In this document: piece after piece, positions 1,592 to 15,328 of the stretch | How positions within the stretch are numbered: the stretch's first letter is position 1 | How the letters are laid out: the number at the start of each line of letters is the position of its first letter | Assembly: GCA_965219415.1 (NCBI GenBank) | Contig: CBDCNP010000002.1 | Location: 1,952,001 to 2,016,000, forward strand | DNA length: 64,000 nucleotides | DNA from: Candidatus Marinacidobacterales bacterium | GTDB lineage: Bacteria > Acidobacteriota > Vicinamibacteria > Marinacidobacterales > DATDRI01 | Direction of reading: 5' to 3' | The notes under the pieces: model-generated | What the model saw: only the letters and a program-made list of their open reading frames with translations | Database searches by the model: none | What the model was told of the DNA's origin: nothing | Made by a program: the position numbers and the translations under genes

Positions 1592-1930
1592 CTACCAGTG
1601 GCAGACGGGGAGTCGGTACCCTACGTGACCGCTAGTTGCCAGCACGTCGGCGAGCCCGTCCGCGAGGACATCGACTGGCGCAGGCCCCCCCCGCGATGGC
1701 TTGCCGCGCATCGACCTCGGGGACCTCCCGGTCGCCATCCACGACCGCTCCATGTGGAGCGTGCGACGCTTGGTGCACACCCGCATCCTCACGAGCCTTC
1801 GCACCTGCTCCAGCCGAAGCGTGCGCTACAACGGCCACCGCGTCGCGACCAAGAGGTACAGTGAGGCCACAAGGTGCGCCGCCGACCACGGAACGACGTT
1901 CACTTCGAGTGGTTCGTTCGGCATCATGTC
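1592..1930 (-). pseudogene. Possible degenerate transposase remnant (IS4-like C-terminus)
   Basis: Stop-interrupted frame reads ...ATRWPL*RTLRLEQVRRLV...VLADGLADVL and lies between two IS elements; resemblance is weak. Confidence 0.25.
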
Positions 1931-2053
1931 TGCCGACCGCCCACGCCGCTCGCGGAACTCGCCGCCGGGGCGGGTGCCACGAATCATCACGTCAGCAGAA
2001 TCGTCTGGCCGGCACGCTCGATCTCTCTGTTCGGTCATACGCTCTCACATAGT

Positions 2054-2955
2054 CGGTTCAAGATCCGAGTCCGTGGCAGCATGCACCAATAATATGAATA
2101 TTGAGGTGCTTCCGCCATCAAGTGTTGCTACGTGGCTGCGGGCAGTGGTACGGGTGCGGAAGAGAGCGGATTGCGCGCCTCTTGACCTGCTCCGGCACCC
2201 GCCGGAGCAACATCTTCGTTCGCTGACTAGTGCTGAACATGGTGCGGTCGGACAGCTTGCCGATCAGCGCATAGCCCGTCTTTCGTTCCACGAGCGTGGT
2301 TACGCAGTCCGGCGCGCCTTTTCCTACCACGGTGTCGATCTCCCAGTGGCCAACGGCACTGCGCTTGTCGACACAAGGCGGCCGCTCGGAGATATGACGC
2401 TTCCCGGCCAGGTGGCCTCGGCTGTCATAGCTGTTGTGGCGCTTGCGTCTAAGTTTGGGCGAGCATCGAAGGTGGCGGTATAGATGTCCTCCGGCCTCCT
2501 TGTCCCGCCAGACGTGGGTGTAGATCGTCTCGTGGCTGATCGAGAGCTCGCCGTGAAGGCGCAGGTGGCCGGAGATCTGCTCTGGGCTCCAGTCAGCCTT
2601 AAGCTTCTTCTCCACCAGGGCAAAGTCGGCCTTTGTGAAGTACTGGTTCCGGCGAGACCGCGATCGTCGTCCGTTCGTTTTCTCGATGGCCTTGCTCGGC
2701 CGGTAGCATCCATCACTACGTGAGCTGTTCCTCCTGACCTCTCTCGAGATTGTGCTCCGGTGGTGCCCCAGGCGCCGCGCAATCTCGGCCGAGCAAAATC
2801 CCTCCCGTCGCAGCGCCGCGATGGTGTATCGTTCTTCCGAGGTGATCTGGTAATAAGTCATTAGCGAGTCCCCATTCTTGGTTGTTTGAGGAATCGTGGC
2901 ACATTCCAGGTCACCTCATCCGGGAGCTGTGTTGCACTTACTTTATGAATTCGGG
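2054..2955 (-). mobile_element. IS30-family element, internally deleted
   Basis: IS30 transposase; end sequence GTTGCACTTACTTTATGAATTCG near 2930-2953 and a partial counterpart CGGTTCAAGATCCGAGT near 2054-2070. Confidence 0.7.
2118..2861 (-). pseudogene. IS30-family transposase, C-terminally truncated
   Basis: HTH (AEIARRLGHHRSTISREVRRN), WSPEQI, SHETIY, GHWEIDTVVG, TLVERKTGY; the later catalytic motifs (DNG.EF, E..N) are missing. Confidence 0.88.
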
Positions 2956-3154
2956 CTTCATCATCCCTCATCAGCGGCGGCGATTGCGGGGCACCGACGC
3001 CATTGGCTATAACGTCGGTCCTCTCGATTGAGTCGACGAACGGAAGTGGATTGGCGATTCGTCTAGTATCCATAGCCGGCCACGCGGCCGCTGCCAGAGA
3101 GTCAAGCCATATGCGGGCATCAAAACGGCGCGTTGCCGCTAGGTAGTTGGTCAG

Positions 3155-4156
3155 ATGCCCCTCCAAGCGCGCGCGCCCACTCGTATCGATCTGGCGGGGG
3201 GGACTCTCGACATTTGGCCCGTCTACCTGATGCTAGAGCAGGCGGCCACCGTGAACGTCGCTATCGATCTCTATGCCGAAGCGAGCATCGAGCCGGCCAC
3301 GCCCACATGGCGCGTGACGGTCGAGGACGGCGGGGGGCAGATCGAGTCTCCGTCACCGGAAGAGCTCTCTAAGCAGACCGGCGCCGAGATCGCCGGCACG
3401 CTTCTCGGTTTCTTCACACCCGACGAGCCCGTCTCGATCACGACGCGCAGCCACGCACCTCCACAATCGGGACTCGGCGCTTCCTCGGCGCTTGGAATCG
3501 CGCTGGCCGGTGGCCTGAACCAATTGACCGGCTCCCGATACCAGCCTTCGGACCTCATCGAGATCGTGAAGAACACTGAGGCAAAGATCCTCGGGACGAT
3601 GACGGGAGTGCAAGATCACTATCCTCCCGTATACGGCGGCGCCAGCTGTCTCTGGTGGGGCATGGGCGGCGATCGACGCGAGCCGCTGCCCCTCGATGCC
3701 TCGAGCTTCGAGGAACGCTTCTTGCTCGCCTACACGCACCAGCCACACCGCTCGGGAGTCAATAATTGGGAGGTCGTAAAACGCTTCCTGGACGGAGATG
3801 TGACGACCCGGCAAGCTTTCGAGACCATCGGTGCCATCGCCGTTGAGATGCGGGACGCGCTGGTAAACGGGGACCTCGAGCGTGCGGGAGACCTCGTCGG
3901 TGAAGAATGGGAAGCCCGTCAACAACTGGCGCCTGCCGTCTCGAGCCCCGAAGTCGAACGGATCCTGCTGACCGCGCTGCAGTCCGGGGCGGACAGCGGG
4001 AAAGCGTGTGGAGCAGGCGGTGGCGGGTGTCTCCTCATAGCGGTACGACCCGATAAGCGGCCGGCCGTGGAGGACGCGATTCGCGCCGCCGGAGGTTCCC
4101 TGGTAGTCTTCCACGTCGACACCCAGGGTTTACAACTGGATTCCGCAGGAGGATAA
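3155..4156 (+). CDS. GHMP-family sugar kinase (HddA / heptose-7-phosphate kinase-like)
   Basis: APTRIDLAGGTLD, PPQSGLGASSA, GVQD, KACGAGGGG motifs. Confidence 0.88.
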   Translation: MPLQARAPTRIDLAGGTLDIWPVYLMLEQAATVNVAIDLYAEASIEPATPTWRVTVEDGGGQIESPSPEELSKQTGAEIAGTLLGFFTPDEPVSITTRSHAPPQSGLGASSALGIALAGGLNQLTGSRYQPSDLIEIVKNTEAKILGTMTGVQDHYPPVYGGASCLWWGMGGDRREPLPLDASSFEERFLLAYTHQPHRSGVNNWEVVKRFLDGDVTTRQAFETIGAIAVEMRDALVNGDLERAGDLVGEEWEARQQLAPAVSSPEVERILLTALQSGADSGKACGAGGGGCLLIAVRPDKRPAVEDAIRAAGGSLVVFHVDTQGLQLDSAGG

Positions 4157-4157
4157 T

Positions 4158-4721
4158 TTGGCCACCGCAACACAAATCCGCAAGGGCTGGGTGATCAAAC
4201 TGAACAACGAGCTTTTCTTCGTACTCGCCATGGATCACATCACGCCCGGGAAAGGCAAAGCCTTCGTTCAAACTAAACTACGAAGTCTCAAAAGCGGTCG
4301 GCTCCTCGACCACCGGTTCCGCTCAGTCGATAACGTAGAGAAAGCCGTCTTAACGACCGTTGAAATGAACTACATGTACGGCTCGGGCGGCGAGCACCAC
4401 TTCATGAACAACGAGACGTATGAGCAGATCATGCTCACCGAGACGATCCTCGGCGATGCGATGAACTATCTGGTGCCCAACAGCACCCTCAAGGTACAGA
4501 TGCACGAGGGCACGGCGGTCGGCATCGAGCTCCCGAGCTCGGTGAAGCTCAAGGTCGTCGATACCGAGCCAGGTATCAAAGGTGCCTCGGCGCAGCAGCA
4601 GTCCAAACCGGCCACTCTCGAGACCGGCCTGGTGGTGCAGGTTCCATATTTCGTCAACGAGGACGAAGTGATTCGGATCGACACCTTCGAAGGCAAGTAC
4701 GTCGAGCGAGTCAAGTCGTGA
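4158..4721 (+). CDS. efp: Elongation factor P
   Basis: HITPGKGKAFVQTKL, KPATLETG, VPYFVNEDEVIRIDT; TTG start after GGAGG. Confidence 0.96.
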   Translation: MATATQIRKGWVIKLNNELFFVLAMDHITPGKGKAFVQTKLRSLKSGRLLDHRFRSVDNVEKAVLTTVEMNYMYGSGGEHHFMNNETYEQIMLTETILGDAMNYLVPNSTLKVQMHEGTAVGIELPSSVKLKVVDTEPGIKGASAQQQSKPATLETGLVVQVPYFVNEDEVIRIDTFEGKYVERVKS

Positions 4722-4745
4722 GTAGCCATTGAGGGGGGTTCGACA

Positions 4746-5390
4746 TTGATAGTTGCCATCGGCTCCACACGGGGTCCCAAGGTGGAGGCGGTCAGACACG
4801 CACTGTCCATACTCAAGGAGCGATTTCCCGGGTTCTTTCGCGACGAGCTCCGTCTCATCGCCAGGACCGTACCCTCGGGGACTGCATCTACTCCCCTTTC
4901 AACGGCTGAGCTCATGGAAGGCGCTCAAACACGCGCCCAAGGACTCTACGAGATTCTCTCCGAAGAGGGAACTGTCGCCAAGCTGGCTATCGGGCTCGAA
5001 GGAGGACTGCGAAGTGAACATTCTGCGGGCCTCACGGAGCCGGTGGTCTCGCTAGAGGCCTGGGCCTACGTAACCGACGGAGTGAGTGGTTTCTTTGGAA
5101 GCAGCGGTTGTCTGCCGCTTCCCAGCGAGTTGGTTCAAGCTGTGATCGAATGCGGCGAGGATCTCGGGCCGGCTGCAGACAAGTTCTACGGCCAACAGGA
5201 TGTCGCGGGACGACAAGGAACGTTCGGAGTCCTAACCGCCGATCTGGTCACACGGGAAGAAGCGTTCGTGCGCGCTCTTCTCCACGCTTTGGCACCGTTT
5301 TACAACGCGTCTGCGTACGCCGAGCGGGGCGCCGAGAAGACGACCAAGAAACGGCCCGCCCCAGCGCCACAAGCGCCCCCCGAAGCGTAG
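4746..5390 (+). CDS. yjjX: Inosine/xanthosine triphosphatase (YjjX/DUF84)
   Basis: [33 protein letters not shown]...TR. Confidence 0.8.
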
Positions 5391-5401
5391 GGCAATCGCA
5401 C

Positions 5402-5974
5402 ATGGATGTCGTTCGCTCTCGCTCGGGATGGATCGAAGTCATCACCGGGAGCATGTTCAGCGGCAAGAGCGAGGAGCTGATTCGCCGCGTGCGACGTGCC
5501 CAGATCGCTCGCCAACGTGTCCAAGTGTTCAAACCGAGCATCGACGGTCGTTACAGTCTGGAGCATATCGTCTCCCACAACGAGCAACGACTCGAGGCGG
5601 AGCTGGTCCCCACCGCGGATGAAATAGAGAATCGTCTCGACGATCGGACCGAAGTCGTGGGCATCGACGAGGCACAATTCTTCGATCCGGACCTAGTCAA
5701 GGTGTGCAACAAATTGGCTTGCATGGGCAAGCGCGTCATCGTTGCCGGCCTCGACCAAGACTACTTGGGCAAGCCTTTCGAACCGCTCCCACAATTGCTC
5801 GCCATTGCGGAGTACATCACCAAGACCCTAGCGATCTGTATGCGTTGTGGGGACCCTGCGAATCACACGCAGCGACTCGGGACCTCCCACGAAAGAGTCG
5901 TGGTCGGAGGTTCCGAAGCCTACGAAGCGCGCTGCAGACGCTGCTTCGAGCCCGGGCCGGCGACCGACAACTGA
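5402..5974 (+). CDS. tdk: Thymidine kinase
   Basis: [29 protein letters not shown]...YEARCRRC zinc site. Confidence 0.96.
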
Positions 5975-6886
5975 GCCTTTCTTAGTCCTTCCACCCATAG
6001 GTTGGCTCCGAGCACCGCGAGGGTGAGCGCCCCACCCGGCACGGCAAGCGTCCACCAGTATCGGGTCAACGAAGCGTAGTTAGAGGCCGCGAAGGCCAGC
6101 ATGTTTCCCCAACTAGCATGGGGCTCCTGCACTCCGAGGCCTAGGAACGAAAGCGTCGCTTCACCTAACAGGAAATACGGGAGCGTGAGACCCACCTGCA
6201 GCAACAAGAGGGGAAGCGTATTCGGAAGGATGTGTCGGAAGAAGAGTCGACCCTGGCCGGCCCCGGCGGCGACCGCGGACGTGGCAAAGTCGCGTTCTCG
6301 CAGCGACAAGACGTGCCCTCGCACGAGCCGTGAAACACCGCACCAACCGACGAGCGCCAACGACCCAACTAGAATCAAGGCCGTCCAACCCTGGGCTAGG
6401 TCATCGGGGAAAACGTTCCGGATCGCGAGAATCAGATAAAGGGCTGGGAGGGCCATGAAGAGCTCCGTCGTTCGCATCAACCATCGATCCCATATCCCAC
6501 CGCCGATTGCCGCGGCCGCTCCCACGAGGGCGCCGAAGCTCACGGTGAGCAAAACACCAAGTAAAGCGGCCGTTGCACTCACCCGCGCTCCATGGAGCAC
6601 CCTCAAGAGTAGGTCTCTTCCCAGAGCGTCGGTACCCAGGAGATAGACTCGACAACCCTGGAACCCGAACAAATGGGTGGCCCCGTCTTTAGTCCGCCAC
6701 CAGCCAGCTAACTGAACAGCCGGCGCTCGGAAGCGAAGGCGGATGATGGAAGCTCTCCCGATCCTGGGCTCGCGGGCTGTAGGGCGCCAAGAAGGAGGCC
6801 CCGACTCCCGCGACGGTGATGACCGAAAGCAGGGCGATCCCTAAGCGTGCCCCCCGATCGGCCCACCACTTGGGTTTCCTCAACAT
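5920..6886 (-). CDS. Oligopeptide/dipeptide ABC permease OppC/DppC-like (frameshifted near 6680)
   Basis: N-terminal OppC-type APYSP motif in 6689-6886; [12 protein letters not shown]-like loop, HILPN, LSFLGLG, SWGNML in 5920-6672. Confidence 0.85.
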
Positions 6887-7227
6887 TTGTGACTCAGTGC
6901 GCGCTCACTCGTCGATCAATGCCGCGGGGCCCCACCGCAGCCTGGCGAGCTCCAGATTGGCAACAACGTATTTTGGCAGCAAGCGGGAATTGAGTTCCCG
7001 CCTGGCGAAGTCGATTGGTGGCACCGACCTCTTTTGGCGGCCGACACGATCTCCCAGCCACGCCTAAGTGCTTCGTCGACTGGGCGACTACGCATGGGCT
7101 CATGGCTGTGTTCCCGCGCTTGGCGCCTCGCTCTTCGCTGGGCGCACCGCCGCCTGGCCACGTCGAGTCTGAGCAACTACCTAGTTTGGCGGCCAACTCG
7201 GGCTCGCAGTGAATCTTCTGCACCTTT

Positions 7228-8199
7228 CTAGGCCTCCTCCATGCGAATACGTGGATCGGCGGCGCCCGTCAATAAGTCCGCGATCAGATTGCCGAAGAGG
7301 ATCAAGACCGATCCGAGTACCAATATCCCAAGCAGCAAGAACGAATCTCGGGCGAGCAGTCCGTCGAACGCGAGCCTCCCCATGCCCGGCCATCCGACAA
7401 ACACCTCGATTAGAAACGCACCGTTCAACATCCGCGCTAGAGAAGCGCCCGCGAAAGCGATGAGTGGGACCAATGCCGGCCGGAGACCGTAGCGGACGAG
7501 TATCTGGCCTTCGGTAAGGCCACGGGAGCGCGCCGCCCTCACGAATTCCGAGGGTAGAATTTCGAGTAGAGCCCCCCTGGCCTGCAAGAAGAATAGAGGG
7601 GACATCGAGAAGGTAAGGAGAAAGGCCGGCAACAGTAGATGCCGAGCATGATCCAACATCCGACTCAACCACGGAAGCTCGAGCGATCCGGCCATAGAAC
7701 CACCACTGATGGGAAGCAGACCGGTGGCCGCGGCAATTCCCAAGCCACCCACCGCAAGCACCAAAGTGGGAACCGAGACGGCTCCGAGTGCAAGACCGGC
7801 AAGGATTCGATCCAGCGATCGTCCCGGACCAAGCATCGCGAGAAGGCCGAATGCCAAACCGACGAGGGACGAGACGACCAGCGCCACCAGCACGAGGGCC
7901 AGCGTATAGAGTGCCGCCTCGCCAAGGAGCTCCGCTACCGGACGTCGAAAGGCGAGAGAAACCCCCAGGTCGCCGCGGACCGCTCCCGCCAACCACGACA
8001 GGTATTGTTCATACCAGGGCTTGTCGAGACCGAAGCGGCTCACAAGGTCGTCGACCGTCCAGGGCGGAATCCCCGGATCCAGTCGCAAACGATCGACGAA
8101 CGAGCCGGGCGCCAGGTGGAGAAGCAGAAAGGAGAAGAAGCTCACCCCGAACAGCAAGGGAATGGCGGCCAGAAGTCTCGTGAGCGCCATACGAAACAC
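7228..8199 (-). CDS. Oligopeptide/dipeptide ABC permease OppB/DppB-like
   Basis: FGLDKPWYEQY, GDLGVSL, FVRAARSRGL, IEVFVGWPGMG, GNLIADL...DPRI. Confidence 0.92.
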   Translation of the reverse strand: MFRMALTRLLAAIPLLFGVSFFSFLLLHLAPGSFVDRLRLDPGIPPWTVDDLVSRFGLDKPWYEQYLSWLAGAVRGDLGVSLAFRRPVAELLGEAALYTLALVLVALVVSSLVGLAFGLLAMLGPGRSLDRILAGLALGAVSVPTLVLAVGGLGIAAATGLLPISGGSMAGSLELPWLSRMLDHARHLLLPAFLLTFSMSPLFFLQARGALLEILPSEFVRAARSRGLTEGQILVRYGLRPALVPLIAFAGASLARMLNGAFLIEVFVGWPGMGRLAFDGLLARDSFLLLGILVLGSVLILFGNLIADLLTGAADPRIRMEEA

Positions 8200-8280: not shown

Positions 8281-10791
8281 TTATCCCACCCGGCGATCGG
8301 TCTTGTCCTCGGCTCCAAAGAGGCTGGGCTGTTGTGCGACGCGATCAGACTCCTCCGGCCTTCGGCGACGCATCTTTCGACGACTCTTCTGATCGTACAT
8401 GTTTCTATCGGCCGCCATGAGGAGGGACTCGAGATCGGCACCGTCAGCGGGAAAAGACGCGAGCCCGAGTGATATTCCCACGCTCAGCATCTTTCCGATC
8501 CCGACGTCGATGTCGGATGACTCCACGACTTCCTGCAGTCGATGGGAAAACTGAACGGCCTGTTCCATCGTCGTCTTCGGCAATACCGCAATGAACTCGT
8601 CCCCAGCATAGCGGACCAATACGTCACTGTCTCGCATCTGCGCCTTCAGGATGCGTCCGACCTCTTTTAGGAACCGATCTCCGGCATGATGACCAAAACG
8701 GTCGTTCACGCTCTTGAAGTCATCCAGATCCATCTCGATGACGGTGAGCGGCTCGTCGTAGCGTTTTGCCTCCGAAAGGGTCTGCTCGAAGAAAATGTAG
8801 AGGAATCGAGAATTGGCGAGGCTCGTCAAACGATCGGTGAAGGCGTCCTCTTGGGTCTCCTCGAACCGAATCGCGTTGTAGAGCGCTATCGACGAGCGGT
8901 TGGCGATGATCTCCATCAACCGCACATGGTCGTGCGAATACCGCTCGTTTCCCGACCAATAGAGCCCGATTGTTCCGAGCGGTCGTTCCTCGTGAATCAA
9001 CGGAGCCAAAATGGAGTTATGGTAATTCTTTCGGAATTGCTCGGGAAGAAGCATCAGATCCGGACCCGGGTGTACGTTGTAGAGCATGCGGTTGTTGGCG
9101 GCCACCCAACCGGCCAATCGCGTCCCGAACTCGATGGACACCTCTTTGAAGGCGTCTGGGTCTTGCCCCGTGATGTGAGCGGGTGTTAGAACCCCCTGGC
9201 TATCGTCCACGAGATAGATGACGAGCGTGCTGAACGGAATGATCTTCTCGATCTTGGATGCGATGATGGTGAGCGTGTCGGGACGGGACAACGAATTGCC
9301 AACGGTCTGCAAGATTTCGAATAGAGTAAATACCTCGCGCTGGGGCTCGGATATTGAGTCGCTGAAGGCGGGAGCCTGTGGAACTCCCACGATGTCCGGC
9401 ATCCGCTTCTTGTCCCGATGCTCCTTCGGCGCCGCCAGCTCCCGAACCGCCAATGTTCGTAACTGCGCGTCGAGCCCATCCACGATCTCTAGGAATTTGT
9501 TGAACACAATGGGGTCGAAACGATGTGCTTCCCGTTGCATGATCGAGATCGCTGTTTCCCGATCCAGGGAGCGCCGGTAGACGCGGCGGGCGGTCAGCGC
9601 TTCGTAGCAATCGGCGACCGCCATAATCCGGGAACCAAAAGGAATCTCGTCACCTTTGAGGCCGTCGGGGTAACCGCTCCCGTCCCAATTTTCATGGTGA
9701 TGTTTCACGAATGGAATCACCGGAACTGGGAAATCGATGGTGGAGAGGATCTGAGCACCCACCGCGGGGTGCGTACTCATCTTCTGGAACTCTCTTTCCG
9801 TCAAACGCGTGGGTTTGTGAAGGATGTACGAGGGGATCGAGATCTTGCCAACATCGTGTAACACCGCGGCGAACCAGAGTCCCTCATAAGTTTTATCGTC
9901 GACACCCAACGCGCGCGCCAATTGCAGGGTTATCAAACGGGTGCGTTGAATATGCGTGCTCGTGTGGTGCTTGTAATCGGTATGGAGCTCTAGCGCACCG
10001 ATCGATAGCGCGAACGCTTCCGCGGTTTGAGTGTAGAGCTGCGTAAGGTCTTCGTACTTCTCGTTGTAGAAGTGATGGGCGTAGTAAACCACCACCAAAA
10101 TGGGAAGACCGAGCAGGAACGCCCAAGGCCCAGCCACTCTCTGGAAGAAGTAAATGACTGCCGCGCCGGAGGCGGAAGCGAGAAAGTAGAGAGGAACAAG
10201 GGAAACGTTCTCTCTCCAAAGCCTCCAGAAGTCACTCCGGCCAGTCACTGCCATCATGGCGTGCATGGAGGCGGAGTTGATTAGGAAATACGTCCCGGAC
10301 AGCAAAAGGACGGGCACGATGACTTGATAGGCCGCCACAGGCCCCGATGGCAAGAACGCGTAATACACAATGCCGTAGACGAACGCGTAGATTCCGCCCG
10401 ACGCGGTGTTGAGGATGGCCTGGCCGTTCTTCCACGCTAGGTTCTCGGCGCGGTTCTCCAAGTGCTTCGTCTTGGTAGTAAACCAGTAGCCCGCCAAGGT
10501 GAAGAGGGCATTGGCCACGACTCCCGGCGCAATCCCGTAGATCATCGTCACCGAGAGGATCAGACAATCGGCCACCGCCATCCAGGTTTGGGTGCGAGGG
10601 ACACGAACGACCCACTTAGAGCTTAGAGAAGCGACCGCGATCAGACCGGCCAGCGACAGCCATTCCTGCCAGGTGAAGACCGCACGCAGCTGAACGAGGG
10701 CGTGGAAGGCCCAAGCGAAGATCGGGAGGGCAACGGCGACGACCGCCGCGATGTAGAGCTCGACTTTGGCTGGCCGATCTTGCCAGTCCAT
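8281..10791 (-). CDS. Membrane-anchored HD-GYP + GAF + GGDEF c-di-GMP metabolising protein
   Basis: About 7 hydrophobic segments in the first ~240 aa; LHDVGK...HHENWDGSGYP; GAF region; DLDDFKSVNDRFGH, RDSD I-site, RYAGDEF. Confidence 0.92.
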   Translation of the reverse strand: MDWQDRPAKVELYIAAVVAVALPIFAWAFHALVQLRAVFTWQEWLSLAGLIAVASLSSKWVVRVPRTQTWMAVADCLILSVTMIYGIAPGVVANALFTLAGYWFTTKTKHLENRAENLAWKNGQAILNTASGGIYAFVYGIVYYAFLPSGPVAAYQVIVPVLLLSGTYFLINSASMHAMMAVTGRSDFWRLWRENVSLVPLYFLASASGAAVIYFFQRVAGPWAFLLGLPILVVVYYAHHFYNEKYEDLTQLYTQTAEAFALSIGALELHTDYKHHTSTHIQRTRLITLQLARALGVDDKTYEGLWFAAVLHDVGKISIPSYILHKPTRLTEREFQKMSTHPAVGAQILSTIDFPVPVIPFVKHHHENWDGSGYPDGLKGDEIPFGSRIMAVADCYEALTARRVYRRSLDRETAISIMQREAHRFDPIVFNKFLEIVDGLDAQLRTLAVRELAAPKEHRDKKRMPDIVGVPQAPAFSDSISEPQREVFTLFEILQTVGNSLSRPDTLTIIASKIEKIIPFSTLVIYLVDDSQGVLTPAHITGQDPDAFKEVSIEFGTRLAGWVAANNRMLYNVHPGPDLMLLPEQFRKNYHNSILAPLIHEERPLGTIGLYWSGNERYSHDHVRLMEIIANRSSIALYNAIRFEETQEDAFTDRLTSLANSRFLYIFFEQTLSEAKRYDEPLTVIEMDLDDFKSVNDRFGHHAGDRFLKEVGRILKAQMRDSDVLVRYAGDEFIAVLPKTTMEQAVQFSHRLQEVVESSDIDVGIGKMLSVGISLGLASFPADGADLESLLMAADRNMYDQKSRRKMRRRRPEESDRVAQQPSLFGAEDKTDRRVG

Positions 10792-10932
10792 CGTGACTCC
10801 CGGTTAGCAGAAAGAAAAGTCGAGTTAAAAGAGACTTCTATTTAAGAGTCCGGTCCAATTGACTTCTTCTTTGATTCCGTTTACCGGGGTTCGTATTAAT
10901 GAATTAGCAAGACGGCAAAATGAAGAGATGTG

Positions 10933-10962
10933 ATAGTAGCACAGCGGCGCCAGGCCGGTCAA
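10933..10962 (-). promoter_or_regulatory. Putative sigma70 promoter of the HD-GYP/GGDEF gene
   Basis: Minus strand TTGACC-18 nt-TACTAT with extended -10 TG. Confidence 0.55.
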
Positions 10963-10980
10963 GATACTAAGGCAGGGAGT

Positions 10981-11012
10981 ACGAGGAGGCCACCGAGGTG
11001 ACCTCCTCTCGT
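10981..11012 (-). terminator. Hairpin downstream of the micropeptide array
   Basis: Minus strand GAGGAGGTCACC-TC-GGTGGCCTCCTC, 12-bp stem; no clear U-tract. Confidence 0.5.
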
Positions 11013-11051
11013 AAAGTCAATTAAATCAGGACGATCGACGGAGATCGTCGT

Positions 11052-11078
11052 TTAGACCCAAAGGATTCCGCGATTCAT
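11052..11078 (-). CDS. Micropeptide MNRGILWV (separated from its RBS by IS1595)
   Basis: ATG AAT CGC GGA ATC CTT TGG GTC TAA; paralogue of 12938-12964; removing the IS restores AAGGAG-ctctgaa-ATG. Confidence 0.65.
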   Translation of the reverse strand: MNRGILWV

Positions 11079-11157
11079 TTGGGAATTATATACTAGTTTA
11101 CACTTGACCCCTGCCCCAGCCTTGTGTATACTACTTCCGTAAATAGGGAGTAGATAA

Positions 11158-11610
11158 ATGGCACACAAAGCACCCGGCAAGCACTACCGCGAAGGGCTCT
11201 CGCTCGTCGAACTAACGCGCCTCTTCCCCGATGACGCAACTGCGGAGCGGTGGTTCGTCGCCCAGAGATGGCCGGATGGCGTTTCCTGCCCTCTTTGCGG
11301 TGGGACCGAGCGCGTCAAGGAGCGCAAGAACAGGAAGCCGTCCCCCTACCACTGCGGAGACTGCCGACAGTACTTCAGCGTCAAGACGGGTTCGCTGATG
11401 CACAACTCCCCACTGGGCTGCCAGACCTGGGCCATCGCCATTTACCTTTTGACGACAAACCTCAAGGGCGTTTCGAGCATGAAGCTGCATCGAGATCTCA
11501 AAGTCACACAGAAGACCGCGTGGTTTCTGGCTCACCGGATTCGTGACAACTTCCAAGGGCAACACAGTTCCTTTCAATCTCCAGTCGCGCGTCGAATTTC
11601 TGTTCTTTAG
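11158..11610 (+). pseudogene. IS1595-family transposase N-terminal fragment (Zn-ribbon + HTH, no DDE domain)
   Basis: FPDDATAERWF..RWPDG..CPLCG...CGDCRQYFSVKTG, KGVSSMKLHRDLKVTQKTAWFLAHRIR; similarity ends before the VEVDETY motif. Confidence 0.9.
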
Positions 11611-11722
11611 GCTCCTCTCCGTCCTCTGTGACGACTACGAAGTAGTCGACCTTTCGGAATTCCAGCACCTCAGCTGAAACACTCGATGCTGCTAGACTGA
11701 GTAAACACATCAACCTGATCAT
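11575..11722 (-). pseudogene. N-terminal half (signal peptide) of an inverted passenger gene
   Basis: AAGGAG RBS, then MIRLMCLLSLAASSVSA-EVLEFRKVDYF...FDARLEI; joins in frame to 11876-12174 if 11575-11875 is re-inverted. Confidence 0.6.
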
Positions 11723-11875
11723 CTGACAAACTCCTTTGCTGGCGCATACACCGGATTCCGGAATTGGTCGCCGGGCCAGTCTGCCCGATCAAGCTGCATG
11801 TGTCGTATGCAGGTTCTCGCTTATTTCCTCCCCGGGGGAGGTCTTGTATTCGGCAAGCGACCCGACGTTGCTGCT

Positions 11876-12174
11876 ACCAGGACGCAAAACAACTGAGGAT
11901 TGTTCACGAGAAAGGCGGGGCCGCAAAGGCAACCTACGCGGAAATCCCGTTCGGGGACGTAACGAGCGTTCTGTACGAGCGGTCCAAGTCGCCGCGTGTC
12001 AAGACAGCCATCTTCCTGTCGCCTCTGGCACTATTTGCGCCAGGAAAGAAACACTGGCTCACCATAGAGTACAAAGGCGGCTACTCGTATATGCGCCTGG
12101 ACAAGAAGAATCAGCGCCAAGTGCGCGCTGCGTTGGGTGCGGCTGGATTTGAAGTCGAAGCGATGGTTGGGTAG
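11876..12174 (+). pseudogene. C-terminal half of a secreted hypothetical passenger protein
   Basis: Protein-like DQDAKQLRIVHEK...KKHWLTIEYKGG...; the upstream part of the predicted ORF is not protein-like and has no RBS. Confidence 0.6.
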
Positions 12175-12288
12175 AACGCAAGGGGCTTAGGTGAAGAGGT
12201 GAACATACCCCTTAGTTCGTTCAGTGGGGTTCGTGTCGATCCCAATCCAGCGTTGCTTCCGCCGGGCCATGTGTTCTCGATCGAAGCG

Positions 12289-12483
12289 TTAGGAAATTAG
12301 GTCTTTGGCCTTGGCGCGGTCCCACCGAGCACGGATCGCCTTTCTCGCAATTTCGCGTCGTCGTTCAGGCGTCAGCTTTGCGGCTCGGGCTTTGCCGAAC
12401 ATGACGGCGCCTGGATTCTTGCCTTCCGCCTCGGCCTTGGCGATCAGCTCCAGGAGCTCGGTTGATTGGCCTGACACAAGCAT
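12289..12483 (-). CDS. Small basic IS-associated protein
   Basis: KNPGAV.FGKARAAKLTPERRREIARKA..ARW motif, commonly seen in mobile elements. Confidence 0.6.
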   Translation of the reverse strand: MLVSGQSTELLELIAKAEAEGKNPGAVMFGKARAAKLTPERRREIARKAIRARWDRAKAKDLIS

Positions 12484-12535
12484 AGTGTATCACTAGTGAG
12501 ATGGAGGCATGGTATGGCAAAGGAGAGATTGCCCC

Positions 12536-12700
12536 ATGAAGGAGAAGGAAACCAAGCCGAAGCGTGGGCGCCCGAGCACTGGGAAATACGACGCGATTAT
12601 CCACATCGATGCTACGCCAGCACAAGTAGCGCGGTCGCTATTCGTGGGTAGGCCGAAGTCCTTAGCAGAGTGGAAACGAGAGAAGAAGATCGTGCCGTGA
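12536..12700 (+). CDS. Small IS1595-associated protein
   Basis: AAGGAG RBS; KPKRGRP (AT-hook-like) and IDATPAQVARSLF. Confidence 0.55.
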   Translation: MKEKETKPKRGRPSTGKYDAIIHIDATPAQVARSLFVGRPKSLAEWKREKKIVP

Positions 12701-12776
12701 GGGGGTTTGTGTAAACTAGTATATAATTCCCATTCATTTCAGAGCTCCTTGTGCTCATTCCAGATCCAGCTCGGGA

Positions 12777-12868
12777 TCACCCGTTAAAAATCAACGCGGG
12801 AGCGGTTCGCTCTTCGAGCTCTTCCACGGTCAGTTCAACGATTTCGATTTGCCATTTTGGGTTTCCAT
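12777..12868 (-). CDS. Leader-type precursor peptide, approx. METQNGKIEIVELTVEELEERTAPALIFNG (needs +1 nt)
   Basis: AAAGGGA-ctaacaa-ATG; one extra A in the GGC AAA (A)TC run joins the ATG to the frame IEIVELTVEELEERTAPALIFNG*. Confidence 0.55.
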
Positions 12869-12937
12869 TTGTTAGTCCCTTTCTTTCAATTAGTTGTGCC
12901 GAATTAACTGAAAACAAAGACGTAAGCAATTTAAATA

Positions 12938-12964
12938 CTAGACCCACAAAACACCGTTGTTCAT
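12938..12964 (-). CDS. Micropeptide MNNGVLWV
   Basis: GGGAGGT-agcacg-ATG AAC AAC GGT GTT TTG TGG GTC TAG; paralogue at 11052-11078. Confidence 0.68.
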   Translation of the reverse strand: MNNGVLWV

Positions 12965-13401
12965 CGTGCTACCTCCCTGAGATGCCCGACCCGAAGGGAC
13001 ACGCCGACCGGGCCGGGGTTAGGAACGGAAGCTCCCTCCACCGAGGGGTCTCCGTTCCTGGACTGAAAAGGTTAAGTTGCTGAGAGGAGTGGTTCGGGTA
13101 ACGCAGCGGAAGGGGACTCGTTGGAACTGTCATGATTTCAAATAAAGGTCTTTGAATGACTAGCTCAAGAACCCTTGGTGCAGCCCCTTTCAGACCGACC
13201 GAAATTACCTACAACCTCTGCCTCTCGACCCACCTCCTTCTCGATTGACCGACAGAAACTGAAGACTTCGAAACTTTGGTCTTTCTAAGACTTCTGATTT
13301 ACGTGCGAAAAATAGACCCCATCAGCAAAACAGTCAGTGACCAGGATCACCAATGGGAAAACATGGGGTTTTCCCCTCGTTCTTTCGGCTTATACCCCAA
13401 A

Positions 13402-15137
13402 TCACCTTGTCAAGTAAAGCTCGTCACTGTTCCAAAGGGTCGGGTGCCAAAAGGGTGTGGGCTCGAGGTTTCCGAGCCGGGAGGTGGTCCCCACCAAGGC
13501 GTGGGGAACGACCAGATCGATGACGGGAAGCTCTTCGACCACCAAGGCCTGCAGCTCATCGATCAATGCCTTGCGGGCTCCATACTCGACGGTCATCATC
13601 TGTTGGCCCATCAGCTCGTCCAACCTCGCTTCCCATTCGCTGGCGGGCTCAGGTTGAGACGGGTGCCATAGGTGGAGAGGAGAGCTGCTGACCCAAAGGG
13701 GCCTCTCCGACGAGGGGTCGGGATCGGTAAAGCTAATCCCCAAAAGGCAAGCTTGGTAGTCGAAACTTCGGGTCACGCGACCAATTAGGGTCGCGAAATC
13801 GAGTGGAACGAGGTTCATTTCGACCCCAATCCGGGCAAGGTCTTCCTGGACGAGGGTGGCGGTCTTCAAACGGAAGGGATTGTCCGCATTGGTGAGGAGA
13901 GTGAACCGCACGCGATTCCCCCGCGGGCCCGAGAAGCACCTCCCCGCCCTGTTTGAAGCCGGCCTTCGCGAGCAGGTCACGAGCCCGTTGCGGATCGTAG
14001 GGCGGTGGAGCAATAGACTCGTTCCACCACCGTCGGTTTGCCGGGGTGATGGGACCGGCTGCCGGAGAAGCCAGATCCCCGTAGACGGCCTTAGCGATGG
14101 GCCGCCGGTCGATGGCCAGGGAAATGGCTCTGCGGAAACGTCGGTCCATGAACCATGCTCTCTGCTCCGCCGATACCGAACTTTCCGGGTTGAGATTGAA
14201 CCAAATTCGCTCGGGAGTCGTTCCCGGGCCCAGATCGATGAGGCGCCGATCCGAAGTTTCTTTCCCACTGAGGCTGATGAAGTGCTCCGGTGGCAGCGGG
14301 CTCAAGAGGTCGAGCTCCCCGGCGCGAAAGCGCAGTGCCAAGGCGTTTGCGTCGGATAAGATTTCAAAGGTGATTCCATCCAAATAGGGGAGCGGCTCGC
14401 CCTCGGGCCCGTACTTCCAGTAGTTCGTGTTGGAGCGGAGTACCACCCTCTGGCCGGGCACATAGCGATCGAGAACAAATGGGCCTAGGCCTATGATCGT
14501 CGCCTCGTTGGCCCCGATCCCGTATTCCGACGGCAACGTTCCTTGCTCGAGAGATGCCTCCAGTCGATGTCGCGGAAGGACGGTGATGCTGTCGAAGATC
14601 CTTTCGACGACCGCAGTTCGAAGCGGTAGCTTGAAACGCACGGTCAGCGGATCGACGACCTCCGGAACGAGCGGCTGGCCCTCGACAACCGCTAACTCGA
14701 CAAAAGGGCTCGCGACCTGCGGGTCGTGAATGACCCGGAACGTGAATGCTACATCCTCCGCCGTGAAGGGCTCACCGTCCGAGAAAAGGACCCCGGGCCG
14801 CAATTTGAAGGTCAGCTCTCGACCATCCTCAGAAAAGGACCACGACTCGGCCAGCTCAGGCTCGAGCTCCTGCGTCACCCGATTGACTTCTGAGCAACGC
14901 GGCATGAAGGCGCTCAGTAATCTGGTGGCTCACCTCATCGGTAGCGAGAAGCCGATTCCACGTCTGGGGCTCGCTACGAATTCCCACTCGCAGCATGCCA
15001 CCGGCGACCGGTGTGCCACTGATCGATGAATCCCCTTGGACCGCCACTTCGTCCGACCAACGGCAGTGAAGGGTGGTGAAAAGCGCAAGCGTAGCGAACG
15101 CGAGGGGCAGGGTAGATGCGCGCGACATCCACGTCAT
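13402..15137 (-). CDS. ABC transporter peptide-binding protein, family 5 (two frameshifts)
   Basis: Signal/lipobox-like N-terminus, GGMLRVG...EP, PELAESW, LRPGVLFSDGEPFTAEDVAFT, GLGPF; spread over ORFs 14856-15158, 13733-14905 and 13402-14268. Confidence 0.88.
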
Positions 15138-15328
15138 TAGGCCCAGCCTTTCTCTCAATAACTGTCTATCTGGAAGTTACATTCTCCATCAAAGAATGCC
15201 GAATAGCCAGAGGTTTCGGTGCCCACAGTCGCAGCGGCTAGACCTTGCGAGGGCCACCGAAGGTGAGCTAAAGTTAACTGGCTCCAAGACTTGGACTTGC
15301 GTACGAAAACCCTCTCGGACCAAAGGCA

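Follow-up and report, generated by a model that had tools for sequence, protein, structure and literature searches.

Conserved micro-ORFs encoding a GILWV-type peptide beside a membrane HD-GYP/GAF/AGDEF enzyme gene in Candidatus Marinacidobacterales: parts of a probable peptide-signal module

We describe here a group of small genes in Candidatus Marinacidobacterales bacterium, located in a stretch of 64,000 nucleotides (assembly GCA_965219415.1, contig CBDCNP010000002.1, positions 1,952,001 to 2,016,000) that is referred to as the window and whose own numbering is used for all coordinates within it. Two eight-codon open reading frames (ORFs), designated micro-ORF 1 and micro-ORF 2, are found on the minus strand together with the remnant of a small precursor gene. 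They are followed in the same orientation by a hairpin, by the gene for a membrane-bound enzyme with domains for the turnover of cyclic di-GMP (c-di-GMP), and by two permease genes; a gene for a solute-binding lipoprotein lies on their upstream side. We refer to this set of genes as the cassette.

Micro-ORFs in the window and in related genomes

Micro-ORF 1 (12938 to 12964, minus strand), the intact distal copy, encodes MNNGVLWV and reads ATG AAC AAC GGT GTT TTG TGG GTC TAG from 12964 to 12938. It is preceded by the Shine-Dalgarno (SD) sequence GGAGGT (12971 to 12976, minus strand) 6 nt before the ATG, and it has SD-bearing homologues in relatives. Micro-ORF 2 (11052 to 11078, minus strand), the proximal copy, encodes MNRGILWV and reads ATG AAT CGC GGA ATC CTT TGG GTC TAA from 11078 to 11052; the identical peptide is found at the corresponding position in the related genome G001. 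The coding part of micro-ORF 2 is intact, and its SD sequence has been displaced by an insertion sequence (IS). This element, 1,651 bp long and of the IS1595 type (11081 to 12731, plus strand), has 23-nt inverted repeats, is flanked by an 8-bp target duplication, AAATGAAT, at 11073-11080 and 12732-12739, and was inserted exactly at the start codon of micro-ORF 2. When it is removed in silico, the former SD sequence AAGGAG (12745 to 12750, minus strand), from which the IS now separates the gene, lies 7 nt before the ATG. The coordinates, codons and SD sequences assigned to both micro-ORFs in a preliminary description of this DNA all agree with the sequence read directly. Six-frame regular-expression searches of the whole genome (8,046,490 bases) found G[IV]LWV-stop only twice, at these two micro-ORFs, and the looser pattern M.{0,4}G[IVL][LIVM]W[VIL]-stop was likewise limited to the same two places. 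Because these are the sole two G[IV]LWV-stop frames in an 8.05-Mb genome, the pair is more than a chance occurrence.

Relatives were examined within the Candidatus Marinacidobacterales (Vicinamibacteria, Acidobacteriota), an order with three families, here named f1, f2 and f3. Orthologs of the enzyme, with 63 to 89% identity, occur in two of the three families, and at 15 of 16 full loci an ORF of 7 to 8 codons with the form M-x(1-2)-G-I-L-W-V-stop is located 260 to 680 nt upstream of the enzyme gene. At one locus, an insertion moves the micro-ORF 3.5 kb away from the enzyme gene. A DNA pattern consisting of an SD sequence, ATG, a gap of 3 to 6 nt, the five codons and a stop, with the reversed pattern as a control, was then run against 55 genomes of the order. 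It matched in 19 of them, every match lying at the cassette locus, and the reversed pattern gave no match in the 55 genomes. The gap between the ATG and the GGN codon is 3 or 6 nt in all 26 matches and never 4 or 5 nt. In family f3 the pattern was found in none of 28 genomes. Outside the order, 3 of 400 sampled genomes of the phylum matched, versus one control match; these three matches (L041 to L043) were rejected as chance occurrences, lying inside other reading frames or without the context of a precursor or an HD-GYP gene. Scans of genome and metagenome contigs for the leader motif of the precursor described below added about 20 further loci.

The pattern of variation was followed in 39 distinct instances, picked by a regular expression that fixes the first and second codon positions. 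Glycine is encoded by all four of its codons (GGT 11, GGA 15, GGC 12 and GGG 1), leucine by five (CTT, CTC, TTG, CTA and TTA), and the stop is TGA in 19, TAG in 12 and TAA in 8; the third codon positions are as variable as the flanks. The C-terminal residue is Val, Ile or Ala in 39 of 39, Val takes the place of Leu in 6 of 39, and an SD-like 4-mer is present 4 to 16 nt upstream in 37 of 39. Because the regular expression fixes two of the three codon positions, a second count was anchored on the precursor instead, using 32 distinct precursor loci with at least 200 nt of upstream DNA. A canonical micro-ORF was found at 29 of these; of the others, one has GTG in place of ATG, one has lost the stop, and one, which is in another genomic context, has no micro-ORF. 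An unpublished genome (G007) supplies one of the 32 loci and two of the 39 instances, and no result hangs on them. Changes in the length of the micro-ORF are by whole codons only, and the plan of the peptide is Met, one or two polar residues and then G-I-L-W-V.

The preliminary description had compared only the two copies in the window and had taken their synonymous differences as a sign of selection on the peptide rather than on the DNA. It proposed to look for SD-led micro-ORFs with G-[IV]-[LIV]-W near orthologous HD-GYP genes and for synonymous bias in them. Such micro-ORFs were indeed found, at the 29 of 32 loci above, and four Gly codons, five Leu codons and three stops are in use; conservation is present with the frame preserved, and conservation of the DNA free of frame was not seen. 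Its expectation that gene callers would miss these ORFs was also supported. Judged from these substitution patterns, the micro-ORF is a real gene selected at the level of its peptide, and it is very likely that it is a translated and selected gene functionally tied to the cassette.

The partner precursor gene and the layout of the small-ORF unit

Between the two micro-ORFs lies the remnant of a precursor gene composed of a leader and a core (12777 to 12868, minus strand), with its ATG at 12868 and a 1-nt deletion near 12848 that breaks the frame. The truncated N-terminal frame reads METQNGKSKSLN and stops (12868-12830), and the true C-terminal frame, which ends at 12777, finishes with ..IEIVELTVEELEERTAPALIFNG (listed also as ..VELTVEELEERTAPALIFNG) before its stop. 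Alignment with G001, in which the precursor is an intact ORF of 31 amino acids (aa), clarified the nature of this gene: the preliminary description was right that a third peptide gene led by a ribosome-binding site is found here, but the ORF it had in hand was the frameshifted N terminus of a conserved precursor.

Members of the precursor family are ORFs of 25 to 43 aa with an acidic leader, ..(I/V)E(L).(V/I)EELEER(T/S)AP-G, and a hydrophobic, lineage-variable core of 5 to 7 residues at the C terminus. The cores seen are GIIIGL, GMIVVL, GLVWT, GVIVAF, GMIWN, GIVWGG and GLIWAC, among others, and several of them have the form G-hydrophobic-hydrophobic-W-x, as in the micro-peptide. At L033, the micro-ORFs encode ..GIVWI and three precursor copies encode ..GIVWGG. 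A profile search of 1.84 billion proteins gave 64 matches at E<=1e-3, including families with other cores. In multi-core relatives, the leader motif precedes each core, and the leader therefore has the pattern of a processing, recognition or cleavage signal. When seven precursors were compared with NCBIfam, no family was matched at E<=10, and comparison with Pfam gave matches at chance level only; the best match of a multi-core relative, to a leader model of the daptide type (NF041808; E 3e-04), scored 20.4 bits where the cut-off is 25. None of the papers searched, supplements being outside the search, contains the strings GILWV, MRGILWV, EELEERTAPG, EELEERIAPG, VEELEER or IEELEER. Matches to EELEER[TS]AP in long frames were set aside (10 of 32 in genomes, in frames of at least 89 aa, and 15 of 60 in metagenomes, in frames of at least 90 aa), as were further matches of the motif that gave no frame match. 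Separately, we observed that the database protein P0010 consists of a micro-ORF and a precursor fused in one frame.

The arrangement of the small ORFs differs between the families. In f2 the order is SD and micro-ORF, a spacer of about 85 nt, SD and precursor, the hairpin, a TTGA..TGTGnTA block, about 170 nt, and the enzyme gene. In f1, micro-ORFs are located both before and after the precursor, the downstream copy about 45 nt before the hairpin, and at L037 and L128 two precursors are flanked by micro-ORFs. This variable placement of the micro-ORF fits a product gene and not a leader element. At L028 (G038), the micro-ORF and the precursor adjoin the binding-protein gene, and 3.4 kb of extra DNA precedes the enzyme gene.

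In the window, the small-ORF unit is closed by a GC-rich hairpin, GAGGAGGTCACC..GGTGGCCTCCTC (10983 to 11008, minus strand). Alignments and RNAfold place a hairpin at the same position in relatives, with a sequence that differs by lineage; terminator scans missed it because no T/U-run follows. Between the hairpin and the enzyme gene lies a promoter-like site, TTGACC-18-TACTAT with TG (10933 to 10962, minus strand), which is a match to the consensus only; the same site was scored in G001, and the TTGA..TGTGnTA block is conserved across the f2 loci. Because the hairpin and the promoter-like site intervene, the small ORFs form a unit of their own outside the leader of the enzyme gene. The preliminary description had correctly seen that the array ends in a hairpin; it had overlooked that the array is a separate unit, the promoter-like site, the transporter context and the erosion of the locus described below.

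RNAalifold, applied at 17 loci to the stretch that begins 40 nt upstream of the micro-ORF and ends at the precursor start, gave 0 consensus pairs, and Rfam gave no match at E<=1 over 10500-13700 of the window. Pairing of an anti-SD sequence with the Ile-Leu codons was considered and dropped, as Leu uses five codons and Val replaces Leu in six instances. In the f2 spacer, a conserved TTTC(A/G)AT directly follows the stop of the micro-ORF, and a conserved TTCATTCC is found about 15 to 20 nt before the SD of the precursor; these blocks may serve the precursor gene as a promoter or as sites for a regulator.

A 269-nt metatranscriptome contig of a relative covers 13036-12808, a span that includes micro-ORF 1 and the beginning of the precursor; it has the base whose absence breaks the precursor frame in the window. 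Two RNA libraries showed zero cover on the enzyme gene and, on the binding-protein gene, one bin at a depth of 1.02 (X20), which does not imply that these genes are silent.

The enzyme, the transport genes and the fate of the cassette

The enzyme gene (8281 to 10791, minus strand) encodes an 836-aa membrane protein with a MASE9-like N-terminal domain followed by HD-GYP, GAF and GGDEF-type (AGDEF) domains. The Pfam matches are HD_5 (E 5e-42), GAF_2 (4e-11) and GGDEF (3e-40). With 143.9 bits against a cut-off of 27.2, the HD_5 match places the protein among HD-GYP proteins, and the HD-GYP motifs AVLHDVGK (HD..GK) and HHHENWDGSGYP are present, both being kept in 22 of 22 proteins checked. The GGDEF domain scores 137.9 bits, and its signature is AGDEF, which departs from GG(D/E)EF. 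AGDEF and the RxxD site five residues upstream are kept in the window and in 20 of 20 orthologs checked; among 22 proteins checked, a GGDEF-type motif is absent only in the distant homolog at L051. The statement in the preliminary description that the catalytic motifs are intact therefore holds for HD-GYP and fails for the cyclase motif, which is AGDEF in the window and in the 20 orthologs. An AGDEF cyclase has reportedly been found active in one instance, and the domain here may be active or may bind a nucleotide in a regulatory role. The N-terminal approximately 250 residues match MASE9 (PF20972) at 19.7 bits (E 8.7e-04), below the gathering score of 24.3, and 6 of 12 orthologous N-terminal domains match the model at E<=0.01.

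The gene upstream of the small ORFs (13405 to 15146, minus strand) encodes a family-5 solute-binding lipoprotein. It is a single ORF in relatives; in the window, as determined by tblastn with the G001 protein, it is spread over three frames by frameshifts near 14888 and 13925, and SBP_bac_5 (Pfam) matches a fragment of it. The binding proteins of relatives have lipoprotein-type N termini with a lipobox-type Cys. The nearest solved relative of the G001 binding protein is the oligopeptide-binding AppA (E 4e-34); solved relatives in this family also bind nickel, haem and sugars, so that peptides are a candidate class of ligand among others. Downstream of the enzyme gene lie ABC permease 1 (7228 to 8199, minus strand; BPD_transp_1 by Pfam, in conserved synteny) and ABC permease 2 (5920 to 6672, minus strand), the latter assigned from synteny only, as it adjoins permease 1 in relatives. 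The order of binding protein, small ORFs, enzyme, permease and permease is conserved in both families, with about 50 to 55% identity between the transport proteins, and synteny over 14-kb loci revealed no further conserved gene in the interval from the binding protein to the permeases (TPR regulators were not searched for genome-wide). At five loci the permeases have been lost and the binding protein, the peptides and the enzyme have been kept, as expected if the role of the binding protein is in signalling rather than in transport alone.

Co-folding of the G001 binding protein (residues 29 to 579) with the precursor gave a score of 0.44, versus 0.04 for the best of three controls, with contact agreement between runs of at least 46% and a predicted local distance difference test (pLDDT) value of the partner of at least 35. 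The calibration comprised 80 solved complexes, 58 of which reached the mark, and 110 mismatched pairs, of which 2 did; at scores of 0.60 or below, it was reached by only 7 of the 80 solved complexes and by both of the passing mismatches. This result weakly supports a pairing of binding protein and precursor. As peptide-binding proteins of the family have already been solved, the pass may reflect likeness to them.

A distant locus, L051 (an uncultured bacterium with a GC content of 66%; 1673-7628), harbors a precursor whose leader is the same and whose core includes ..FIW.., situated between two genes. One encodes an HD-GYP/GAF/degenerate-GGDEF homolog with the same architecture and 30% identity to the enzyme, and L051 is therefore a second link of the precursor family to this enzyme type. 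The other encodes a protein of 932 aa that has HlyD domains and matches Peptidase_M50 weakly, which hints at processing and export. A candidate exporter with 25 to 30% identity to the latter protein, C3:1538146-1539819, was found in the same genome as the cassette of the window but outside the window, and its neighbors, genes for an aminotransferase, a symporter and a carbamoyltransferase, are uninformative with respect to peptides. At L047, a precursor is found with no HD-GYP gene within its 8 kb, next to genes for a DUF885 protein and a MacB/FtsX permease.

The micro-ORF and the enzyme gene occur together. All 13 genomes with an uninterrupted full-length enzyme ortholog have the micro-ORF; it is absent from the three genomes with no ortholog (G002, G022 and G040) and from the three in which the ortholog is N-terminally truncated or fragmented (G012, G016 and G018). 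At L032/L069 (G034), the stop of the micro-ORF is lost and its frame continues for 25 residues, the precursor has a TTG start, and a TAG interrupts the enzyme gene; the cassette of G034 appears to decay as a unit. A link of the micro-ORF and precursor to the HD-GYP gene is thus supported by strict co-location, by joint loss and by the L051 lineage.

The cassette in the window is itself eroded by the IS insertion, the precursor frameshift and the two frameshifts in the binding-protein gene. The IS belongs to the IS1595 family by its first ORF (11158-11610, 150 aa), which matches Zn_ribbon_IS1595 at E 7e-07 (29.5 bits against a cut-off of 25.4). Its second ORF (11736-12152, 138 aa) matched no Pfam family, so its transposase may be split. 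The element is present in a single copy, as blastn against the genome finds only itself. Contigs from two other runs, one of which may be the source sample, are identical to the window over 12580-14900 and break at or bridge into the IS. An IS-free allele was considered on the basis of an X4 contig that joins 11101 to 12711; with 9 other letters at the join and a side of 21 letters, it was rejected as too weak. Outside the window, the M50 and HlyD homolog at C3:1537728-1539825 (G000, L137) is represented by two overlapping ORFs in different frames. Since this gene also looks split, indels in the assembly are possible, and the split genes suggest either many pseudogenes or indel errors.

Interpretation and alternatives

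The cassette is probably a peptide-signal module coupled to the turnover of c-di-GMP. We propose a mechanism that we consider about equally likely to be right or wrong. The precursor would be cut after its leader, and the hydrophobic core would be released as a signal and bound by the extracytoplasmic binding protein. The bound signal would either be taken up via the permeases or be presented to, or partitioned into, the membrane domain of the enzyme, and it would shift the enzyme between the breakdown and the synthesis of c-di-GMP. The micro-peptide, a leaderless and nearly invariant look-alike of the core (G-hydrophobic-hydrophobic-W-x), would act in trans at the receptor site used by the core, as an agonist or antagonist built into the system. 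We infer from the arrangement of the genes that the peptides may be ligands of the membrane domain, as the preliminary description had suggested. An architecture of MASE9, HD-GYP, GAF and GGDEF has been published, together with the proposal that its ligand binds within the membrane, and no ligand or partner genes are described in the part of that MASE9 survey, by Galperin and Chou, that was consulted (bioRxiv 10.1101/2021.11.05.467447). The domain order is the same here, and an intramembrane ligand site would suit a hydrophobic peptide; the N-terminal domain of this enzyme scores below the MASE9 threshold. A more specific version of the mechanism is a cell-cell circuit in which the processed, lineage-specific hexapeptide is the outside signal, caught by the lipoprotein, and the micro-peptide is an internal competitor or primer at the MASE9-like enzyme; this version is possible, and we regard it as rather doubtful.

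Several observations weigh against this interpretation of the cassette. Translation, processing, export and binding are predictions from the sequence, and RNA-library contigs cannot prove transcription. The co-occurrence counts overstate independence, because the genomes are related and the genes adjacent, and single deletions can cause the co-loss of adjacent genes. In the window, the binding-protein gene, the precursor and the SD sequence of micro-ORF 2 are damaged and the enzyme gene is intact, so the enzyme can persist without the peptide part. Synteny over the 14-kb loci showed neither an exporter nor a leader peptidase among the genes of the cassette, and an ABC ATPase gene beside the permeases was likewise absent. 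The MASE9 assignment is weak, being below the Pfam threshold, and the co-fold is weak by its own calibration and covers the precursor rather than the micro-peptide. Finally, an invariant GILWV beside a variable core would also fit a conserved target like the ribosome.

This last point leads to the possibility that the micro-ORF is a cis-acting upstream ORF, in which the ribosome is stalled by GILWV-stop, with a small molecule as a possible trigger, and the stall gates the precursor gene or read-through of the hairpin into the enzyme gene, the peptide having no function in trans. Leader peptides of the tryptophanase-operon type, which stall at the stop codon, provide a precedent, and they resemble the micro-ORF in being short ORFs with a conserved C terminus that includes Trp, located upstream of other genes. 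The extreme shortness of the micro-ORF with its strong SD (37 of 39) is consistent with such a function, as are the concentration of conservation in the last five residues and the stop while the post-Met residues vary in identity and number, the near invariance of GILWV across two families whose enzymes are about 65% identical, which fits the ribosome as the target, and the location of the f2 copy always 80 to 130 nt before the precursor and of the f1 copy about 45 nt before the hairpin. Unlike the tryptophanase-type leader, however, the micro-ORF is much shorter, precedes no fixed gene, shows no conserved RNA structure at the 17 loci and is duplicated on both sides of the precursor in f1. Neither the fixed 5'-leader position nor the conserved alternative structure of a leader-peptide attenuator was found, and Rfam gave no match at E<=1. 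The layouts, with the micro-ORF before, after or flanking two precursors, fit no single cis target, the hairpin and the promoter-like site separate the small ORFs from the enzyme gene, and stalling gives no reason for the likeness to the core (GIVWI beside GIVWGG at L033). We therefore judge a purely cis-acting role to be unlikely. The micro-ORF can hardly be explained as a motif conserved at the level of DNA or RNA, for example a site for a protein or a small-RNA element, that by chance can be read as an ORF: conserved flanking blocks (TTTC(A/G)AT and TTCATTCC) and an RNA-library contig over the region would fit it, but variation sits at third positions and at the synonymous first positions of Leu, three stops and four Gly codons are used, insertions are of whole codons only, ATG is replaced only by GTG, the spaced SD is kept, and neither an Rfam match nor a consensus structure was obtained.

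It is also improbable, in our estimate, that the peptides are a secreted natural product or pheromone, derived from a precursor like those of peptides that ribosomes synthesize and that are modified after translation (RiPPs) together with a leaderless one, with a target other than the enzyme and a transporter serving uptake or immunity, the enzyme gene being no more than a conserved neighbor. The RiPP-like leader with its sub-threshold daptide match (20.4 versus 25 bits), the leader before every core in multi-core relatives, the L047 precursor without an HD-GYP gene within 8 kb, and the inclusion of families with other cores among the 64 profile matches would be expected of such a product. No gene for a modifying enzyme, a peptidase or an exporter was found by synteny in the 14-kb loci, however; the precursor adjoins an enzyme of the same architecture in two lineages at 30% identity, and the micro-ORF occurs only where the enzyme gene is full length. 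Microcin C7 is encoded by a heptapeptide gene ending in Asn, with an adjacent adenylyl-transferase gene. The biarylitides derive from 5-codon precursor genes with aromatic residues, directly followed by a P450 gene (PMC12002111, PMC13417212). These systems resemble the micro-ORF in having genes of 5 to 7 codons, with their own SD and missed by gene callers, that encode a leaderless peptide. Unlike microcin C7, the C terminus here is Val, Ile or Ala in 39 of 39, and no adenylyl-transferase is part of the conserved gene order; unlike the biarylitides, the peptide has 7 to 8 residues with a single Trp, and the next gene is the precursor, or a hairpin follows, with no P450.

A module of peptides and a c-di-GMP enzyme, the interpretation we prefer, has partial counterparts among signalling systems. 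In enterococcal-type systems, similar hydrophobic peptide pairs have opposing roles. Short-peptide signalling in Firmicutes is represented by SHP/Rgg and by the enterococcal pheromone-inhibitor pairs, of the RRNPP type (PMC3150281, PMC7564271). In these systems, too, the genes are small, the active part being the C-terminal hydrophobic 5 to 8 residues; an M50-type protease and an exporter are involved there, and a gene with a weak M50 match and HlyD domains adjoins the L051 precursor; and here a family-5 oligopeptide-type binding protein and permeases adjoin the peptide genes. In contrast to these Firmicutes systems, the present one is found in Acidobacteriota, its conserved partner is a membrane c-di-GMP enzyme, no TPR receptor was seen in the 14-kb loci (the genome-wide TPR search mentioned above was not made), one peptide would be translated directly as a leaderless 7- to 8-mer, the leader is acidic and ends in AP-G, and the cassette has no exporter. 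The NspS-MbaA pair of Vibrio cholerae consists of a membrane c-di-GMP enzyme and a periplasmic binding protein that controls it (PMC5646818, PMC8967002). As in that system, the gene for a solute-binding protein is located beside that for a bifunctional c-di-GMP enzyme bound to the membrane. There, a polyamine is the ligand and the enzyme is a GGDEF-EAL protein with a periplasmic domain; the binding protein of the cassette is a peptide-type lipoprotein of family 5, its HD-GYP/GAF/AGDEF enzyme has a membrane domain with only short loops, and the candidate ligands are encoded at the locus. Each of these known systems shares one part of the cassette and none has the whole combination. The preliminary description knew of no described system of this form, and no family or paper in our searches, supplements being outside them, matched it.

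Annotation overlooks genes as short as seven codons, and only a small number of them are known to have a function; the comparative evidence for this micro-gene is clean and spans two bacterial families and many metagenome contigs. For the precursor family, no Pfam or NCBIfam model is reached at its cut-off and the motif strings stand in no paper searched, and the membrane enzyme conserved as its genomic partner has a sensor domain for which no ligand is known. The question of what is sensed by membrane domains of the MASE type can thus be approached with synthetic peptides. A further possibility is that peptide signalling feeds directly into c-di-GMP in this phylum of Gram-negative soil and marine bacteria, in which no such signalling is known. 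If the cell-cell circuit were true, it would provide the first ligand of a MASE9-type domain and the first direct link from a peptide to c-di-GMP, and the micro-ORF would be one of the shortest functional genes known.

The leader searches also brought up sequences beyond the cassette. A second family of small proteins has a leader of the form ..EELEE.(I/T)AP(G/K) and cores with NHNETL(V); its members are P0031-P0038 and P0052, and the loci are L080, L083, L085, L108, L111, L125, L132, L134 and L065. It is without a Pfam or NCBIfam model at threshold, and the string NHNETL is in no paper searched (supplements outside the search). Some of its proteins carry 2 to 4 repeats of leader and core, and it looks like an undescribed family of multi-core precursors. 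A sequence with ..VEELEERTAPGTCF.. was noted at L073/L086 (Verrucomicrobia), and precursors with a similar ..IW.. core were found at L119 and L126, on short contigs.

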